Below are positions 7,803 through 26,476 of a stretch of 39,747 nt of DNA, one piece after another. The DNA is from Escherichia phage Vec13. The stretch lies in the sequence record NC_048023.1; one strand, given 5' to 3'. Position numbers and translations under genes: made by a program. Positions within the stretch are counted from its first letter, which is position 1. Each line of letters opens with the position of its first letter. Under the pieces are notes generated by a model. The model was given only the letters and a program-made list of their open reading frames with translations, had not been told where the DNA came from and did no database searches.

Positions 7803-8057
7803 ATGTCTAAAAACTTAATGTTCAACCGATTTACTCGAAGCTTCCACCTGTCGCATAGCCCATTCAGCTTCCATAAAGCTAATCAACCATTACCCCGCTT
7901 TGGTAAGACAGTGGCTCTGTCTCCTACAGTTCATGCGCTAGTCACCCGCAAGTCTATGCTGAATGCTATGGATAAAGAACAAATTGATGTACCTGTGGTC
8001 GTTACAAAATGGCCTCGCATTAAGCTGGCACTTCAGGTAATTAAGGAGGCGCTCTGA
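7803..8057 (+). CDS. Hypothetical protein (84 aa), gene 1.4-1.6 region
   Basis: SD aaaggag; follows phage promoter. Confidence 0.55.
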   Translation: MSKNLMFNRFTRSFHLSHSPFSFHKANQPLPRFGKTVALSPTVHALVTRKSMLNAMDKEQIDVPVVVTKWPRIKLALQVIKEAL

Positions 8058-8392
8058 TGACATACTGTGATAGCACCACATACTGTGAAGCATGTAATGG
8101 TGACGACCGCTTCCCGCACGTTGGTAAACTTGTAGGTAACAAACTACAAGAAATTGATGGCGTCCGCAAGCCGTCCCACTATAAGGTCTTTGATGGCGTG
8201 GAATCCATTGAGATTATCGCACGGTCAATGACTGTGAGTGAGTTCCGTGGGTTCTGCATGGGTAACGTCCTGAAGTATCGACTTCGGGCTGGTAAGAAGT
8301 CCGAGCTGGCGACTATGGAGAAGGACATGGCGAAAGCTGAGTTCTATGGTGAACTTTACGAGAAACATAAGGACAAGTGTTATGACGCATGA
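8057..8392 (+). CDS. gp1.7-like protein (nucleotide kinase homolog, short form)
   Basis: 111 aa; KPSHYKVFDGVESIEIIARSMTVSEFRGFCMGNVLKYRLRAGKKSELA...KHKDKCY matches C-terminal half of T7 gp1.7. Confidence 0.8.
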   Translation: MTYCDSTTYCEACNGDDRFPHVGKLVGNKLQEIDGVRKPSHYKVFDGVESIEIIARSMTVSEFRGFCMGNVLKYRLRAGKKSELATMEKDMAKAEFYGELYEKHKDKCYDA

Positions 8393-8609: not shown

Positions 8610-8696
8610 ACCGAGTGAGTGGTGCCGGGAGATGTACGAGAAGACTCTCAACCCGGACTACATTACGTTATACAACCAATGGAAGGAGCGTGGTCT

Positions 8697-8855
8697 ATGA
8701 CTGACGTAGAAAAGAAATACATCGTGGAGCTTGAGGGTCGCGTTCAGTCATTCGAGGTTCCGGTGTACGCAAAGTCTCTTGAAGAGGCTACCCTGAAGTC
8801 CCAAGAGTATGAGGACGCTGGGTTTGTGGTCGGACGGATTCGTCCTGAGACCTAA
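8697..8855 (+). CDS. gp2-like inhibitor of host RNA polymerase
   Basis: [15 protein letters not shown]...[10 protein letters not shown] resembles T7 gp2 HSFEVPIYAETLDEA...AGFEVTRVRP; start at internal ATG 8697 with SD aaggag (track ORF 8619..8855). Confidence 0.7.
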
Positions 8856-11206: not shown

Positions 11207-11223
11207 ACTATCACCTTAGGGAT
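11201..11223 (+). promoter_or_regulatory. Possible weak phage promoter variant
   Basis: gactaaACTATCACctTAGGGa; two mismatches at -5/-4 relative to consensus; T7 has phi3.8 at this location. Confidence 0.3.
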
Positions 11224-15769: not shown

Positions 15770-16059
15770 TGGCTATGACCAAACGTATGCGAGTATCGTT
15801 CTCGCTGGGTGCTGTGCTGTCTACTGAAGACGTGAAGCAGTTCGAGAAGTCTCTCTGTGAGCTGAGCCGTAAGGTCCTGAACGGTGAGAAAGTCTCAGGG
15901 TTCGAGCGTAAGATGGTCGAAGTTGGCGTGACTGAAGGTCTGGAAGCTGTAGTCGAGCTGGTCTTCAAGAAAGGTATCGTCGATGGCCTGAAAGAGGACC
16001 TAAGCCACTACGCCGACCAACCGTCCTTCGGTGACTTCCGAGTGGAGTTCAAACGATGA
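15769..16059 (+). CDS. gp5.5-like protein (T7 gp5.5 binds H-NS)
   Basis: 96 aa; begins MAMTKR, ends GDFRVEF, features I recall for T7 gp5.5; assignment also by position. Confidence 0.6.
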   Translation: MAMTKRMRVSFSLGAVLSTEDVKQFEKSLCELSRKVLNGEKVSGFERKMVEVGVTEGLEAVVELVFKKGIVDGLKEDLSHYADQPSFGDFRVEFKR

Positions 16060-16265
16060 GCGAATACTTACGGGTCCTTGCGGCCCTTAAGTCCTGCCCG
16101 AAGACCTTCCAGTCCAACTATGTGCGCAACAACGCTGCACTTGTGGCTGAGGCTGCGAGTCGTGGACATCTAAGCTGCCTGTCTATGGATGGGCGTAACA
16201 ACGGTGCGTGGGAGATTACCGCTGAAGGCACCAAGTTCCTGAACCAACACGGAGGCTGTCTATGA
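16056..16265 (+). CDS. gp5.7-like protein
   Basis: 69 aa; LKSCPKTFQSNYVRNNAALVAEAASRGH...GAWEITAEGTKFL closely matches T7 gp5.7. Confidence 0.85.
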   Translation: MSEYLRVLAALKSCPKTFQSNYVRNNAALVAEAASRGHLSCLSMDGRNNGAWEITAEGTKFLNQHGGCL

Positions 16266-16540
16266 GTCAACAACCTTTTGATTTTCTGGGCCAACCTATC
16301 GAAGTGGGCGACAAGTTCGTATACGCTGAGGCTGGTGGACGTGGTGGTACAATGGCGCTACACTCTGGTGTCGTCACACGGATGACTGAGAAGCAGGTGC
16401 TGGTGGAGAAGACCAGATGGGGCCAGACTTGGCGTCCATTTAACTGCATCGTCATTGTAGAGAAGTGCGGTCCAGGCGAGGAGCCTCTTCTAGGAGCAAC
16501 CTTATCGATGGCTAAAGGAGGTCTGGACGATGGGTGCTGA
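16262..16540 (+). CDS. Hypothetical protein (92 aa) at the gene 5.9 position
   Basis: SD ggagg; no resemblance to T7 gp5.9 as I recall it. Confidence 0.5.
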   Translation: MSQQPFDFLGQPIEVGDKFVYAEAGGRGGTMALHSGVVTRMTEKQVLVEKTRWGQTWRPFNCIVIVEKCGPGEEPLLGATLSMAKGGLDDGC

Positions 16541-17399
16541 GAAGAAGATAGCTCTTGTTCTTGATGGCGATTACCTAGTGTTCTCTTCTATGGCTGCTGC
16601 CGAGGACGAGACAGACTGGGGTGATGACATCTGGACCCTTATCTGCGACCACGAGAAGGCTCGTCGTATCCTTGATAACACCATCGATGAAATCGTTAAG
16701 AAGCGCAAGGCGTGGAAAGACGCTAAGATTGTGATGTGCTTTACTGACGATAACAACTGGCGTAAGGATGTTCTGCCTACCTATAAGGCCAACCGTAAAG
16801 GTTCTCGCAAGCCTGTAGGTTACAAGAAGTTCGTAGACGAAGTGATGGCTGACCCACGGTTCAACAGCTTCCTGCGTCCTACGCTTGAAGGTGATGACTG
16901 TATGGGTATCATCGGGACCCGACCTCAGATTGTCGGATGTGACCATGCGGTGCTGGTGTCCTGTGATAAGGACTTCAAGACAATCCCGAACTGTGAGTTC
17001 TTCTGGTTAACCACTGGTGAAATCCTGAGTCATACGACTGCCGAGGCAGACTACTGGCACATGGAGCAGACCATCAAGGGTGACACTACAGATGGCTACG
17101 GTGGTATTCCGGGGATGGGTGAGGACACCACTCGTGCGTTCCTTGACGAGCCATACTACTTCGTGCAGGAGAGCCGTGAGCTTAAGACTGGTAAGAACAA
17201 AGGCCAGATTAAGACTGAGTGGAAGAAGTACCCTAAGCGTGAAGACATGACGCTGTGGGACTGCATGGTGACTCTGGCTGCTAAAGCTGGGATGACCGAG
17301 GAGGAGCTTCTGGTCCAAGCTCAGGTCGCTCGTATTTGCCGAGCCTCCGACTACGACCCTAAGTCCAAGGAGGTCATCCTGTGGACACCATCCATGTAA
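16530..17399 (+). CDS. 5-3 exonuclease (T7 gp6 homolog)
   Basis: 289 aa; FTDDNNWRKDVLPTYKANRK, LEGDDCMGII, SCDKDFKTIPNCEFFW, TIKGDTTDGY, LWDCMVTLAAKAGMTEEEL match T7 gp6. Confidence 0.95.
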   Translation: MGAEKKIALVLDGDYLVFSSMAAAEDETDWGDDIWTLICDHEKARRILDNTIDEIVKKRKAWKDAKIVMCFTDDNNWRKDVLPTYKANRKGSRKPVGYKKFVDEVMADPRFNSFLRPTLEGDDCMGIIGTRPQIVGCDHAVLVSCDKDFKTIPNCEFFWLTTGEILSHTTAEADYWHMEQTIKGDTTDGYGGIPGMGEDTTRAFLDEPYYFVQESRELKTGKNKGQIKTEWKKYPKREDMTLWDCMVTLAAKAGMTEEELLVQAQVARICRASDYDPKSKEVILWTPSM

Positions 17400-17525: not shown

Positions 17526-17548
17526 ACTAAACTATCACTATAGGGACT
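17526..17548 (+). promoter_or_regulatory. Phage RNAP promoter (phi6.5-like)
   Basis: ctaaACTATCACTATAGGGact; +1 G at 17543. Confidence 0.85.
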
Positions 17549-18530: not shown

Positions 18531-18771
18531 ATCAATCAGTAAGGCATTCAAGAAAGTGGTGAAAAGTACGCTAGGGACCGTTGGTCTTGGCTCTGATGAC
18601 GCACCTAAGGTTGTTGAGGCTCAGACCCCAGCAGCACCAGTGGAAGTACCGAACGACAAAGTGGAGGATGTGGATACTGAAACAACCGCATCTGACGAGA
18701 AGAAAGTGAAGCGTTCCGGTAAGCGTAACCTTCAGGTCTCTCGCACCTCTGGTGGCGGTATTTCTATATGA
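18523..18771 (+). CDS. gp7.3-like tail/host-range protein (GTG start)
   Basis: 82 aa; MGKSISKAFKKVVKS basic N-terminus and C-terminal SRTSGGGISI match T7 gp7.3 (MGKKVKKAVKK ... SSGGGINI); SD aaggag. Confidence 0.8.
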   Translation: MGKSISKAFKKVVKSTLGTVGLGSDDAPKVVEAQTPAAPVEVPNDKVEDVDTETTASDEKKVKRSGKRNLQVSRTSGGGISI

Positions 18772-19160
18772 CACCATGTCATGAATGGGGTGGATACTGC
18801 ACCAAGGATGGCTACGGTGAAACTAGGGTAGATGGGCGCAAGGTTCGCGTTCATCGCCTAGAGTGGACGAAACACTACGGACCCATTCCGCATGACAAAG
18901 TGGTTCGCCACAAGTGTGACAACCCTAAGTGTTTTAATATTGAACACCTAGAGTTAGGGACAACACAGGATAACACGGCTGACAGAGTGTCTCGTGGTCG
19001 AAGCGCCAAAGGAGAGGATAACGGTAACGCCGTCCTCACTATTGATATTGTTAATGAGATTCGCGAAAGTAGCATGTCTCAGCGCAAAATAGCGAAGACC
19101 TATGGAGTGTCACAGTCTACCGTATCTAAAATCAAACGCAATGTAACGTGGAGGTCATAA
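18768..19160 (+). CDS. HNH homing endonuclease with C-terminal helix-turn-helix
   Basis: 130 aa; VHRLEW...VRHKCDNPKCFNIEHLELGTTQDN is an HNH nuclease signature; C-terminal SQRKIAKTYGVSQSTVSKI is HTH-like. Confidence 0.85.
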   Translation: MTPCHEWGGYCTKDGYGETRVDGRKVRVHRLEWTKHYGPIPHDKVVRHKCDNPKCFNIEHLELGTTQDNTADRVSRGRSAKGEDNGNAVLTIDIVNEIRESSMSQRKIAKTYGVSQSTVSKIKRNVTWRS

Positions 19161-19161
19161 C

Positions 19162-20730
19162 ATGGCAGAACGTGAAGGATTTGCGGCTGAAGGCGCTAAG
19201 TCAGTTTATGATAGATTGAAGAACGGACGACAGCCTTACGAGACCCGCGCACAGAACTGCGCTGCCGTGACCATCCCCTCGCTATTTCCCAAGGAGTCCG
19301 ACAACTCGTCTACGGAATACGTGACGCCGTGGCAAGCTGTAGGTGCTCGCTGCTTGAACAACTTGGCTGCAAAGCTGATGTTGGCGTTATTCCCTCAGTC
19401 ACCGTGGATGCGACTGACAGTCTCCGAATATGAGGCAAAGACCTTGAGTCAGGACTCAGAGGCTGCTGCTCGTGTTGACGAGGGGCTTGCTATGGTCGAG
19501 CGTGTGTTGATGGCCTACATGGAGACCAACAGTTTCCGTGTGCCATTGTTCGAAGCTCTGAAGCAGCTTATAGTCTCCGGTAACTGTCTGCTATACATTC
19601 CAGAGCCTGAACAGGGAACCTACAGTCCTATGCGAATGTACCGCTTAGTGTCCTACGTTGTTCAACGTGATGCTTTCGGTAACATCTTACAGATTGTGAC
19701 TCTCGACAAGGTAGCGTTTAGTGCTCTACCGGAAGACGTGAAGTCTCAACTCAACGCAGACGACTATGAGCCTGACACCGAGCTTGAAGTGTATACGCAC
19801 ATCTACCGTCAGGACGACGAGTATCTGCGCTACGAGGAAGTGGAAGGCATTGAGGTGACAGGGACCGATGGTTCCTACCCGCTGACTGCATGTCCATACA
19901 TCCCGGTACGAATGGTTCGACTGGATGGTGAAGACTACGGTCGTTCTTACTGCGAGGAGTATCTGGGAGACCTGAACTCGCTGGAGACGATTACAGAAGC
20001 TATCACTAAAATGGCTAAGGTAGCCTCCAAGGTGATTGGCCTCGTTAACCCGAACGGTATCACGCAACCTCGACGTCTGAACAAGGCGGCTACAGGTGAG
20101 TTCGTGGCTGGTCGCGTTGAGGACATCAACTTCCTGCAACTGACGAAAGGTCAGGACTTTACGATTGCCAAGTCGGTGGCTGATGCTATCGAGCAACGTT
20201 TAGGCTGGGCCTTCCTTCTTAATAGTGCTGTTCAGCGTAATGCCGAGCGAGTCACTGCTGAAGAGATTCGTTATGTTGCTGGCGAACTGGAGGCGACCTT
20301 AGGTGGCGTGTACTCAGTGCAGTCACAAGAGCTTCAGTTACCTATCGTCCGTGTGCTGATGAACCAGCTTCAGTCTGCTGGAATGATTCCTGACCTTCCG
20401 AAAGAAGCGGTAGAGCCTACTGTCTCCACTGGTCTGGAAGCGTTAGGTCGTGGTCAGGACTTAGAGAAGCTAACTCAGGCAGTCAACATGATGACCGGGC
20501 TCCAGCCTCTGCAACAGGACCCAGACATTAACTTGCCGACCCTGAAGCTGCGACTGCTGAACGCTCTGGGTATAGACACCGCTGGTCTACTCCTCACGCA
20601 GGACGAGAAGATTCAGCGCATGGCTGAACAGTCGTCTCAACAGGCAGTAGTCCAAGGTGCTGGTGCTGCTGGTGCCAACATGGGCGCTGCTGTAGGTCAG
20701 GGAGCTGGTGAGGACATGGCTCAAGCCTAA
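19162..20730 (+). CDS. Portal (head-to-tail connector) protein (T7 gp8 homolog)
   Basis: 522 aa; AEGAKSVYDRLKNGRQPYETRAQNCA, TPWQAVGARCLNNLAAKLMLALFP, GLVNPNGITQPRRL, RVTAEEIRYVAGELE match T7 gp8. Confidence 0.98.
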   Translation: MAEREGFAAEGAKSVYDRLKNGRQPYETRAQNCAAVTIPSLFPKESDNSSTEYVTPWQAVGARCLNNLAAKLMLALFPQSPWMRLTVSEYEAKTLSQDSEAAARVDEGLAMVERVLMAYMETNSFRVPLFEALKQLIVSGNCLLYIPEPEQGTYSPMRMYRLVSYVVQRDAFGNILQIVTLDKVAFSALPEDVKSQLNADDYEPDTELEVYTHIYRQDDEYLRYEEVEGIEVTGTDGSYPLTACPYIPVRMVRLDGEDYGRSYCEEYLGDLNSLETITEAITKMAKVASKVIGLVNPNGITQPRRLNKAATGEFVAGRVEDINFLQLTKGQDFTIAKSVADAIEQRLGWAFLLNSAVQRNAERVTAEEIRYVAGELEATLGGVYSVQSQELQLPIVRVLMNQLQSAGMIPDLPKEAVEPTVSTGLEALGRGQDLEKLTQAVNMMTGLQPLQQDPDINLPTLKLRLLNALGIDTAGLLLTQDEKIQRMAEQSSQQAVVQGAGAAGANMGAAVGQGAGEDMAQA

Positions 20731-23315: not shown

Positions 23316-23882
23316 ATGCCTCAATACATTCCACTGAATGCTAACGATGACTTAGACGCCATCAACGATATGTTAGCTGCTATCGGTGAACCAGCAGTCC
23401 TACAGCTTGACGAAGGTAACGCTGACGTCTCGAACGCTCAACGTATCCTGCATCGTGTTAATCGTCAGGTCCAAGCTAAAGGCTGGAACTTTAACATCAA
23501 CGAAGCTGCTGTCCTGACGCCTGATGTCCAAGACAACAGGATTCGATTCCTGCAGTCTTACCTTCGGGTCATGACTGCTGGTGCTACCAGTTACTACAGC
23601 AACATGGGGGGCTATCTCTATGACCTGTCCACTCAGTCCACGACCTTCACTGGACCAATTACAGTCGAACTGGTGGAGATGAAACCGTTCGCTGAGATGC
23701 CTGTAGTATTCCGTGACTACATCGTTACCAAGGCTAGCCGTGAGTTCAACGCTAAGTTCTTCGGTAGCCCAGAGTCTGAACTGTACCTTCGTGAGCAGGA
23801 AGCAGAACTCTACCAGCAGGTGATGGAGTACGAGATGGACACTGGTCGCTACAACATGATGTCCGACATCGGGAGGGACTAA
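23316..23882 (+). CDS. Tail tubular protein A (T7 gp11 homolog)
   Basis: 188 aa; IGEPAV, RILHRVNRQVQAKGWNFNI, VTKASREFNAKFFG, MEYEMDTGRYNM match T7 gp11. Confidence 0.95.
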   Translation: MPQYIPLNANDDLDAINDMLAAIGEPAVLQLDEGNADVSNAQRILHRVNRQVQAKGWNFNINEAAVLTPDVQDNRIRFLQSYLRVMTAGATSYYSNMGGYLYDLSTQSTTFTGPITVELVEMKPFAEMPVVFRDYIVTKASREFNAKFFGSPESELYLREQEAELYQQVMEYEMDTGRYNMMSDIGRD

Positions 23883-24109
23883 TGGCTAGTCACAACCTGA
23901 AGATTCACCGCCAGCACTTTGGTCCGGTACAACTAGGTCTAAAGACAGCAGAGCTGAGACTTAACGACCGGGACTTTAAGGTTGGCGACTGGCTTATCCT
24001 GAATGAGTGGGACAACGGGTATACTGGACAACAGGTAGCACGTAAGGTTGTCCACATTGATGACGTTGGTGACATCGCTGAGGGATACGTCCTAATGAGT
24101 ATGATTTAA
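23882..24109 (+). CDS. Small protein (75 aa) inserted between tail tubular genes; possible DUF3850/ASCH-like fold
   Basis: SD gggaggg; motif LRLNDRDFKVGDWLIL resembles DUF3850 family proteins; no T7 counterpart between genes 11 and 12. Confidence 0.55.
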   Translation: MASHNLKIHRQHFGPVQLGLKTAELRLNDRDFKVGDWLILNEWDNGYTGQQVARKVVHIDDVGDIAEGYVLMSMI

Positions 24110-24118
24110 GGAGGGCCT

Positions 24119-26476
24119 ATGCCACTAATTACTCAATCAATCAAGAACCTTAAAGGCGGTATTAGCCAGCAGCCAGACATACTGAGGTTCTCAGACCAAG
24201 GCGAGGAGCAAGTTAACTGCTGGTCATCCGAAAGTGATGGACTCCAGAAGCGTCCACCTACAGTCTTCAAGCGACGTCTTGACATCGACGTTGGGAGCAA
24301 CCCTAAGTTCCACCTGATTAACCGTGATGAGCAGGAGCAGTATTACATCGTGTTCAACGGGTCCAACATTCAGGTAGTCGACTTGAGCGGTAATCAATAC
24401 TCAGTTTCAGGTGCGGTAGACTACGTTAAGTCGTCCAACCCGCGAGATGACATCCGTGTCGTTACAGTTGCAGACTATACGTTCATCGTGAACCGTAAGG
24501 TTGTCGTTAACGGTGGAAGCGAGAAGTCACACTCTGGTTATAATCGTAAAGCTCGTGCTTTAATTAACCTGCGTGGTGGACAGTATGGTCGCACCCTTAA
24601 GGTAGGAATCAACGGAGGCGTTAAGGTTTCGCATAAGCTGCCAGCAGGTAATGATGCCGAGAATGACCCACCTAAGGTGGATGCTCAGGCCATCGGTGCA
24701 TCTCTGAGAGACCTTCTTGTTGCTGCTTACCCTACCTTCACGTTCGACCTTGGGTCTGGCTTCCTGTTAATCACTGCCCCTTCAGGGACTGACATTAACT
24801 CAGTGGAGACGGAGGATGGCTACGCTAACCAGCTAATCAGCCCAGTCCTAGACACGGTGCAAACAATCTCTAAGTTGCCTCTTGCGGCTCCAAATGGGTA
24901 CATCATTAAGATTCAAGGTGAGACCAACAGTAGCGCCGATGAATATTACGTGATGTATGACTCCAATACTAAGACGTGGAAGGAGACAGTAGAGCCGGGA
25001 GTGGTCACTGGGTTCGATAACACCACAATGCCACATGCTCTGGTGAGACAATCTGACGGCTCCTTTGAGTTCAAGACTCTGGACTGGTCTAAGCGGGGTG
25101 CTGGTAATGATGACACAAACCCTATGCCTAGCTTCGTGGATGCTACGATTAACGATGTGTTCTTCTACAGGAACAGGCTAGGGTTCTTGTCAGGAGAGAA
25201 CGTAATCATGAGCCGTTCAGCCAGCTACTTTGCGTTCTTCCCTAAGAGTGTGGCGACATTGAGTGATGATGACCCTATTGACGTAGCTGTAAGTCACCCT
25301 AGAATCTCAATACTTAAGTATGCCGTTCCGTTTAGCGAGCAGCTACTACTTTGGTCAGATGAGGTGCAGTTCGTGATGACAAGCTCAGGGGTCCTTACCT
25401 CGAAGTCTATCCAGCTTGATGTGGGCTCAGAGTTTGCCTTAGGTGATAACGCCAGACCGTTCGCTGTAGGACGCTCAGTCTTCTTCTCAGCGCCTCGTGG
25501 GTCATTCACCAGTATTAAGCGATACTTCGCTGTAGCAGATGTGTCTGACGTGAAGGATGCCGATGATACCACTGGTCACGTACTGTCCTATATCCCTAAC
25601 GGGGTGTTTGACATTCAAGGTACAGGGACTGAGAACTACATCTGCGTCAACTCTACAGGTGCATACAACCGAATCTACATCTACAAGTTCTTGTTTAAGG
25701 ACGGCGTACAACTTCAAGCCTCTTGGTCGCACTGGGAGTTCCCTAAAGCTGATAAGATTCTGGCGTCTGCGTCGATTGGCTCTACCATGTTCATTGTTCG
25801 TCAGCACCAAGGGGGTGTGGACATTGAGCACCTTAAGTTCATCAAGGAGGCAACCGACTTTCCATTAGAGCCGTATAGACTCCACGTTGACTCCAAGGTG
25901 TCTATGGTAATCCCAAGTGGCTCATATAACGCTGACACCTATGAGACTACGGTCGACATTGGTTCTGCTTATGGTGGAAACGCTCCGTCTCCCGGTCGGT
26001 ACTATCTGATTGACAGTCAGGGTGCCTATGTGGACCTTGGTGAACTGACCGACATCTCAACTGTGGCTATACTCAATGGCGATTGGTCGGGACGTACAGT
26101 GTTCATCGGACGGTCTTATCTGATGTCCTACAAGTTCTCACGGTTCCTGATTAAGATTGAAGACGATAGTGGCACTCAGTCTGAAGACACTGGACGTCTA
26201 CAGCTTCGTAGGGCTTGGGTCAACTACAAGGACACTGGCGCTCTTAGACTCATTGTCAGAAACGGTGAGCGGGAGTTCGTGAACACCTTTAATGGGTACA
26301 CCATTGGTCAGCAAACCATCGGGACTACCAACATTGGGGATGGACAGTATCGCTTCGCTATGAATGGTAACGCATTAACCACGAGCCTAACCTTAGAGTC
26401 AGACTATCCTACCCCAGTGTCCATCGTTGGGTGTGGCTGGGAGGCGTCATACGCTAAGAAAGCTCGTTCCGTCTAA
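24119..26476 (+). CDS. Tail tubular protein B (T7 gp12 homolog)
   Basis: 785 aa; QSIKNLKGGISQQPDILR, VTVADYTFIVNR, NDVFFYRNRLGFLSGEN, LQLRRAWVNY, GCGWE match T7 gp12. Confidence 0.98.
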   Translation: MPLITQSIKNLKGGISQQPDILRFSDQGEEQVNCWSSESDGLQKRPPTVFKRRLDIDVGSNPKFHLINRDEQEQYYIVFNGSNIQVVDLSGNQYSVSGAVDYVKSSNPRDDIRVVTVADYTFIVNRKVVVNGGSEKSHSGYNRKARALINLRGGQYGRTLKVGINGGVKVSHKLPAGNDAENDPPKVDAQAIGASLRDLLVAAYPTFTFDLGSGFLLITAPSGTDINSVETEDGYANQLISPVLDTVQTISKLPLAAPNGYIIKIQGETNSSADEYYVMYDSNTKTWKETVEPGVVTGFDNTTMPHALVRQSDGSFEFKTLDWSKRGAGNDDTNPMPSFVDATINDVFFYRNRLGFLSGENVIMSRSASYFAFFPKSVATLSDDDPIDVAVSHPRISILKYAVPFSEQLLLWSDEVQFVMTSSGVLTSKSIQLDVGSEFALGDNARPFAVGRSVFFSAPRGSFTSIKRYFAVADVSDVKDADDTTGHVLSYIPNGVFDIQGTGTENYICVNSTGAYNRIYIYKFLFKDGVQLQASWSHWEFPKADKILASASIGSTMFIVRQHQGGVDIEHLKFIKEATDFPLEPYRLHVDSKVSMVIPSGSYNADTYETTVDIGSAYGGNAPSPGRYYLIDSQGAYVDLGELTDISTVAILNGDWSGRTVFIGRSYLMSYKFSRFLIKIEDDSGTQSEDTGRLQLRRAWVNYKDTGALRLIVRNGEREFVNTFNGYTIGQQTIGTTNIGDGQYRFAMNGNALTTSLTLESDYPTPVSIVGCGWEASYAKKARSV

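Follow-up and report, generated by a model that had tools for sequence, protein, structure and literature searches.

In phage T7, the interval between gene 5.7 and gene 6 is filled by gene 5.9, whose 52-residue product gp5.9 has an isoelectric point (pI) of 4.1 and a charge of -8.5. The structure of the RecBCD-gp5.9 complex describes it as a highly acidic dimeric parallel coiled coil that mimics DNA and binds the RecB arm (PMC9836394). Here, we analyse what occupies this interval in Escherichia phage Vec13 (NC_048023.1; the whole stretch of 39,747 nucleotides is called the window hereafter). It holds a complete open reading frame (ORF) on the plus strand, vec13_30 (16262..16540, from ATG to TGA, 92 residues and a stop codon), which an exact-sequence look-up identified as the Vec13 hypothetical protein vec13_30 (AXF38912.1 / YP_009807353.1). 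An earlier, sequence-only reading had placed this ORF directly upstream of the exonuclease gene, at the gp5.9 position, and the neighbours bear this out. The left one is a gp5.7 homologue (16056..16265, plus strand, 69 residues, 77% identical to T7 gp5.7), the right one is the gene 6 5'-3' exonuclease (16530..17399, plus strand, 289 residues; phrog_107 with an expectation value (E) of 6.5e-81, Pfam 5_3_exonuc_N), and vec13_30 therefore has the position of gene 5.9 of T7. Since this slot is hypervariable among close relatives, where it can also be empty or hold a DUF7205 gene together with a gp5.9-like gene, the DUF7205 protein encoded by vec13_30 is an independent accessory module and not a like-for-like replacement of gp5.9.

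The vec13_30 protein

The sequence-only reading saw no resemblance to gp5.9 and proposed homology searches and structure prediction as the check. Both agree with it, and point to a DUF7205 protein with a predicted barrel instead of a diverged gp5.9. BLASTP produced no alignment between vec13_30 and T7 gp5.9 at E<=100, hhalign of the family alignment against an alignment of T7-, Berlin- and T3-type gp5.9 gave a probability of 0.2%, and the gp5.9 PHROGs are absent among the PHROG matches of vec13_30. The hallmarks of gp5.9 are missing too: there is no acidic surface (pI ~4), and the single-chain model is a barrel, not a coiled coil. That vec13_30 is a highly diverged gp5.9 is suggested only by its position between gene 5.7 and gene 6, and we give this reading practically no credence. 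Besides the null alignments, vec13_30 belongs to phrog_2251 whereas the gp5.9 types belong to phrog_9014, 4790 and 6234, its predicted fold is an all-beta barrel with a pI of 7.8 as opposed to a coiled coil with a pI of ~4, and both families are found side by side in the same genomes. The alignments (BLASTP, hhalign), the PHROG assignment, the charge, and the predicted fold thus all led us to reject this candidate. We also rejected the possibility that gp5.9 is encoded at another place in the window: with gp5.9 of T7 and of Berlinvirus as queries, tblastn over its entire length had a best E of 0.45 and found no gp5.9 homologue.

The ORF is a genuine gene, and its core is under strong purifying selection. 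We computed the ratio of nonsynonymous to synonymous substitution rates (dN/dS) by the method of Nei-Gojobori. Over codons 1-69, it is 0.01-0.09 at dS of 0.25 to 0.9 among five Kayfunavirus-type copies; in the copies of Klebsiella phages it is 0.00-0.17 where dS is measurable, including ~0.03 at dS above 2. The tail codons gave 0.2-1.1 between the window and its relatives, over few sites. A chance ORF, or a decaying remnant devoid of function, would fit with the slot being empty in some phage and with the poor conservation of the tail, but it is very improbable given such low ratios at dS up to ~0.9 in Kayfunavirus and >2 in the Klebsiella-phage copies, the spread of the family over many phage groups, and the intact translation signals.

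Residues 6-70 match phrog_2251 ("unknown function") with E 7.3e-19, and PF23835.2 (DUF7205) is precomputed on all homologues in a large protein collection, including one that is 94% identical. A typical member of the family is a stand-alone protein of ~60-75 residues with an N-terminal D-x-x-G-x-x-I-x-V-G-D motif, and vec13_30 consists of this core plus a tail of 23 residues. By these matches, we assign residues 1-69 (16262..16468, plus strand) to a stand-alone DUF7205 / phrog_2251 domain; residues 70-92 (16469..16540, plus strand) make up the C-terminal tail, which is variable among homologues and part of the right junction of the slot. Local scans of vec13_30 with Pfam-A, NCBIfam, and PADLOC returned no matches; the local Pfam-A, which gives no family match for the homologues either, apparently lacks the PF23835 model, and zero matches there does not mean that there is no Pfam family. 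Three members of the family had no match in PADLOC-DB at E<=1, which says little about anti-defence since the PADLOC models cover defence proteins. The protein is thus already known as a deposited sequence (RefSeq, hypothetical), and its family is already in Pfam and PHROGs as one of unknown function. A literature search found no mention of PF23835, DUF7205, or phrog_2251, and a paper screening accessory genes has the 5.7-6 slot outside its coverage.

A relative is encoded in 106 records of GenBank phages. About 75 are copies in Klebsiella Przondovirus (65-69 residues, ~57% identity), including ORF ASC_0027 of phage K11, and ~29 are Kayfunavirus-type copies of 91-92 residues with 78-96% identity (SH4, SH5, IMM-002, many Salmonella Typhi phages, EcpYZU01). 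Berlinvirus, Teetrevirus, and Pectobacterium phages account for the remainder, with copies that are more distant. In an exhaustive search with a profile, we retrieved 48 representative clusters at E<1e-3, most of them stand-alone proteins of 60-80 residues and a few of them tandem duplications, and a wider one retrieved 173 proteins, some on contigs of 130-350 kb. In the distant metagenomic members P0042, P0043, P0047, and P0071, the barrel is tandemly duplicated in one polypeptide, sometimes with extra C-terminal sequence. Two other variants (P0015 and P0017, 109-114 residues, on contigs of ~40.6 kb) continue into a Cys-rich extension (...CWACIEKDDRFPHTCGKEA) that resembles the N-terminus of a nucleotide-kinase-like protein of the window (TYCEACNGDDRFPH..., window 8057-8130). 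This extension may be a small zinc-ribbon motif recurring in T7-like phages.

The fold was predicted with AlphaFold2, as a single chain and from an alignment of 17 sequences. The mean predicted local distance difference test (pLDDT) score is 80.9, with block means of 93-95 for residues 11-20 and 31-70, 83 for residues 1-10, and 77 for the glycine-rich loop at 21-30, and the tail has values of 41-55. The model has five strands (18-24, 31-37, 45-51, 54-59, and 64-67), and the prediction for the core is a small beta-barrel, SH3-like and of the KOW/Tudor type, that can be superposed on KOW domains. Foldseek against the PDB gave no match better than E 0.06, and the matches in BFVD are uncharacterised phage proteins only, such as B3VD04 of K11 with a template modelling (TM) score of 0.90 normalised to the target. 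As the matches of the structure searches are only generic, we describe the predicted fold as a generic SH3-like barrel of the KOW/Tudor type, with no characterised protein as its specific match. The KOW profile (Pfam PF00467) has no match at E<=1 in vec13_30 and none at E<=10 in five homologues. A Berlinvirus homologue has a sub-threshold match to Phage_ProQ_C_like (PF24203; E 4.6e-4, 21.3 bits for a cut-off of 27, profile positions 1-40 of 112), a profile that does not match vec13_30 itself. Over 35 diverse members, the positions D7, G10, G16, D17, and V38 are near-invariant, and the T7-like subfamily has in addition a W-R-P-F motif at 57-60. The core has a pI of 7.8 and a charge of +0.6 in vec13_30, and its pI is 8.1 in K11 and 9.6 in JSS2; the full-length vec13_30 has a pI of 5.3 and a charge of -2.4.

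The start of vec13_30 overlaps the stop codon of the gp5.7 homologue (ATGA at 16262-16265), and a Shine-Dalgarno sequence, GGAGG, can be read 6 nucleotides before the ATG (16251..16255, plus strand). The stop codon of vec13_30 (16538-16540) falls 11 nucleotides into gene 6, which starts with the ATG at 16530; the Shine-Dalgarno sequence of gene 6, read as AAGGAGG (16515..16521, plus strand), is embedded in the final codons of vec13_30. These overlapping start and stop codons suggest translational coupling of vec13_30 with gp5.7 and gp6. Sites resembling phage promoters (ATCACTATAGGRA) were found on the plus strand upstream at 11210..11222 (ATCACCTTAGGGA, 2 mismatches to the consensus) and downstream at 17534..17546 (ATCACTATAGGGA, the phi6.5 equivalent), with none between them. 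They bracket vec13_30, which would therefore belong to the class II (DNA metabolism) unit with genes 4, 5, 5.5, 5.7, and 6, and is probably transcribed with them.

The interval between genes 5.7 and 6

The region is 90-97% identical in DNA to Kayfunavirus (K1F-like) phages of the T7 family. The blastn homology to vB_EcoP_F ends at 16265, at the stop codon of gp5.7, and resumes at 16508, 22 nucleotides before the ATG of gene 6. By this comparison, the DUF7205 domain sits on a cassette of 242 bp (16266..16507, plus strand) that was recombined into a hypervariable slot. In vB_EcoP_F, the cassette encodes F_33, an unrelated protein of 149 residues (phrog_4382, charge -19). The closest relative of the flanks is PhiNW-B1 (~97% protein identity in gp5.7 and gp6), and it also has the F_33 type in the slot. 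The nearest DUF7205 cassettes are those of SH4 and SH5, with ~91% DNA identity. Flanks and cassette have different closest relatives, so that Vec13 is mosaic here.

At least five states of the slot exist within Kayfunavirus: 1) it is empty in vB_EcoP_PR_Kaz2018, where the stop of gp5.7 overlaps the start of gene 6; 2) it holds DUF7205 in Vec13, SH4, and others; 3) it holds the F_33 type (phrog_4382, 149-151 residues) in vB_EcoP_F, Zappy, and PhiNW-B1; 4) it holds a protein of 110 residues, acidic by residue count (phrog_18166), in Salmonella phage ST29; and 5) it holds a fusion of DUF7205 with a gp5.9-like segment in IMEP24. The slots of relatives also hold DUF7205 and a separate gp5.9-like gene, in either order.

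The tail of vec13_30 resembles that of the unrelated F_33 (E 3.9e-4), and the ending ...GGLDDGC is common to both proteins. Similarly, the ending ...VPAMSKAKAVS(D/N)E is common to the EcpYZU01-type DUF7205 proteins and the ST29 protein. Unrelated proteins of the slot thus have in common the tail alleles ...MAxGGL(D/R)D... and ...VPAMSKAKAVS(D/N)E (window 16451-16540, L003 2425-2512, L034 ~1550-1607), in a stretch that also contains the ribosome-binding site of gene 6. The tails travel with the right junction and not with the cargo, so that the 92 residues of vec13_30 consist of a domain of 69 residues plus residues encoded by the junction. Judging from where homology resumes (16508), the last ~11 codons derive from the conserved junction upstream of gene 6, and the same holds, more weakly, for the whole tail of ~20 residues.

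As a sequence, vec13_30 is ordinary, and its modest value comes from its context, the 5.7-6 interval behaving as a swap site. Near-isogenic phages differ mainly in this cassette, which makes for a clean natural experiment. It could be used to find out what DUF7205 and the acidic proteins do, and how Kayfunaviruses lacking gp5.9 cope with RecBCD. The sequence-only reading had also suggested an alternative nuclease inhibitor or anti-defence factor, and the diversity of cassettes, which includes the empty state and the gp5.9-like fusion, renders this idea directly testable.

Candidate functions of the DUF7205 domain

We looked up the neighbourhoods of seven distant members of DUF7205. In L021, the gene immediately follows one for a PD-(D/E)XK nuclease and has DNA polymerase III alpha downstream of it. 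In L023, it comes after YopX in an early region that is siphovirus-like, and in L025, it is surrounded by small genes, with a methylase and DNA polymerase III alpha nearby. In L027, its neighbours are a homing-endonuclease-like gene on one side and a metallophosphatase on the other, NrdD being close, and in L029, genes for thymidylate synthase, HNH, and NUDIX proteins are nearby. In another T7-like contig (L028), it lies between gene 2 (RNA polymerase inhibitor) and gene 2.5 (single-stranded DNA-binding protein), and in a large phage (L030), it adjoins NadA. The theme common to the seven contexts is an early or middle region with genes of nucleotide and DNA metabolism. None of the look-ups gave DUF7205 a constant neighbour or partner, and a function by guilt by association was rejected for this reason.

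The reading that we favour, with a confidence somewhat above even, is a general one: vec13_30 would act as a small module that binds a macromolecule of the host or of the phage, and its benefit would be conditional. It would bind stoichiometrically to one such macromolecule, protein or nucleic acid, and provide a host-dependent advantage in host takeover or counter-defence, acting by other means than the DNA mimicry of gp5.9. Such a role is typical of slots like this one, which otherwise carries gp5.9-like proteins or further proteins of very acidic character. Several points weigh against it. The putative binder mechanism draws on the fold class and on genomic behaviour only, and no solved structure was matched by sequence. 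The near-invariant positions (D7, G10, G16, D17, and V38) look structural, and so give no pointer to a binding site. Finally, the naturally empty slot shows that the gene is dispensable and is silent on what it does.

A more specific proposal is that the barrel, KOW-like or similar to the C-terminal domain of ProQ, binds RNA or single-stranded DNA in the service of phage DNA metabolism or gene expression, and has no part in countering host defence. The neutral to basic core across subfamilies (pI 7.8-9.6), the sub-threshold ProQ_C-like match of the Berlinvirus homologue (E 4.6e-4, 21.3 bits, cut-off 27), and the presence of the gene in DNA-metabolism or replication modules of many phages are in its favour. 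We nevertheless regard it as rather unlikely, because the net charge is small, six members have no Pfam KOW match even at E<=10, vec13_30 has no ProQ_C-like match, and phages can do without the gene or have unrelated acidic proteins in its place, unlike a core factor of replication or expression.

The relation with gp5.9-like genes was studied in 34 loci and the window, 25 of which span the 5.7-6 slot, a sample that is biased because most loci were fetched through DUF7205. Within this biased sample, 4 of the 19 T7-like loci with DUF7205 also have a separate gp5.9-like gene, and one has the fusion. The order is 5.7, gp5.9-like, DUF7205, 6 in Salmonella phage JSS2 (Berlinvirus) and Klebsiella phage KA1-1, and 5.7, DUF7205, gp5.9-like, 6 in Escherichia phage 536_P3 (Teetrevirus) and the IMG/VR locus L016. 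DUF7205 and gp5.9 are thus not mutually exclusive. In 536_P3 (L019 1710-1890, a record marked UNVERIFIED), the gp5.9-like frame has an in-frame TGA at the W of the conserved GVDNW motif, which could be a sequencing error or the mark of a pseudogene.

The fusion is found in Escherichia phage vB_EcoP_IMEP24 (L005 1501-1812, protein cluster of P0058). Its barrel (residues 1-64) is followed by an acidic segment, the C-terminal two-thirds of a gp5.9 of the Berlin type (...KLAALEAGGVDNWEGY...EDEDDE), and this segment matches phrog_6234, annotated 'host RecBCD nuclease inhibitor', with E 1.1e-11. The cluster has 17 members of 102-105 residues on many independent contigs of ~39-40 kb, so that it is not a sequencing artefact. 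A deletion in an arrangement with DUF7205 before the gp5.9-like gene would produce such a protein. Apart from the fusion, nothing positive connects DUF7205 with RecBCD inhibition, and this link is suggestive but weak.

This link bears on the possibility that vec13_30 acts on RecBCD, or on another nuclease or DNA-end processor of the host, as an inhibitor or modulator that does not mimic DNA, either by binding a subunit surface, as Abc2 of P22 does with RecC, or as a helper of gp5.9-like proteins. A number of arguments can be made for it. First, in Vec13 it would supply the missing gp5.9 function, the gp5.9 slot being occupied and no gp5.9 homologue being detectable in the window. Second, the fusion to a phrog_6234 segment is stable, and in JSS2, KA1-1, 536_P3, and L016 the two genes are neighbours, in one order or the other. 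Third, the slot is a hypervariable accessory one, in which relatives hold gp5.9-like or other very acidic proteins, and one unrelated phage contig has DUF7205 beside a PD-(D/E)XK nuclease gene. Fourth, non-acidic binders of RecBCD exist, and Abc2 provides the precedent (PMC9836394).

Other points speak against it. Of the 19 T7-like loci, 4 have DUF7205 next to or near a gp5.9-like gene of its own, which argues against a redundant function, and one close relative has nothing in the slot. Instead of an acidic coiled coil, the core is a predicted beta-barrel of about neutral or basic character. A tolerated deletion between neighbouring genes, in the order of 536_P3 and L016, can account for the fusion, and the label of RecBCD inhibitor on T3- and Berlin-type proteins derives from annotation. 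Most other contexts lack a nuclease or a RecBCD-inhibitor neighbour. A role of vec13_30 in nuclease inhibition is therefore possible but unsupported, and we judge this mechanism to be decidedly unlikely. We are just as doubtful of the broader proposal that DUF7205 is a new family of small phage counter-defence proteins in the gp5.9 pathway, with RecBCD or another nuclease or sensor of DNA ends as their target, which they would bind away from its DNA site, alone or as a targeting module for an acidic gp5.9-like segment. If this were true, a genuine 'Rosetta stone' signal would lie in the fusion and in the recurrent adjacency of the two genes, whichever comes first, and T7-like phages would have in their 5.7-6 slot a compact island of counter-defence with at least five interchangeable cargoes.

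Other genes of the window and comparison with known proteins

Four other genes of the window, all on the plus strand, deserve mention. An Ocr-like anti-restriction protein is encoded at 1610-1942 (phrog_2568, E 7.8e-53) and a gp2-like inhibitor of RNA polymerase at 8679-8855 (phrog_1307). With these two genes, Vec13 keeps other classical host-takeover genes of T7 while having no detectable gp5.9. An HNH_3 homing-endonuclease gene with a C-terminal helix-turn-helix (18768-19160, Pfam E 3.4e-17) lies just upstream of a large ORF (19162-20730) and is another mobile insertion. The gene for a protein of 75 residues with a DUF3850 / ASCH domain (23882-24109, Pfam E 2.4e-19) is inserted between two ORFs (23316-23882 and 24119-26476) whose positions suggest that they are the tail tubular protein genes (11 and 12). 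T7 is not known to have a gene at this place.

The closest counterparts of vec13_30 are other hypothetical proteins. ORF ASC_0027 of K11 (YP_002003815.1), annotated as an unknown product, is a DUF7205 protein in the same 5.7-6 slot and is 57% identical to vec13_30, compared with 88-96% for the Kayfunavirus copies, and the hypothetical proteins of Citrobacter phages SH4 and SH5 and of Salmonella phages ST21 and ST56 are of the same family and in the same slot. The copies of Vec13 and other Kayfunaviruses differ from the Klebsiella-phage homologues of 65-69 residues in carrying an extra tail of ~22-23 residues, and that of Vec13 ends in ...GGLDDGC, like F_33, rather than in ...GGLRDE.

Among characterised folds, the predicted barrel is of the kind found in KOW domains (NusG/Spt5, ribosomal uL24) and Tudor-like barrels (the C-terminal domain of ProQ). 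It differs from them in being a stand-alone core of ~65 residues, outside an NGN or ribosomal context, with no Pfam KOW match and with Foldseek E-values against the PDB that are not significant. Gp5.9 of T7 (phrog_9014) and the gp5.9-like proteins of the T3 and Berlin types (phrog_4790 / phrog_6234) have in common with vec13_30 their position, small size, and class II expression. They differ from it in having no sequence or profile similarity to it, in fold (coiled coil versus predicted barrel), and in pI (4.1 versus 7.8 for the core or 5.3 for the full length). The F_33 and ST29 types have the same insertion point, the same left and right junctions, and the same C-terminal tail alleles as the DUF7205 cassettes. 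They are unrelated to DUF7205 in sequence and strongly acidic, and therefore are, by composition, better candidates for DNA mimics than the DUF7205 barrel.

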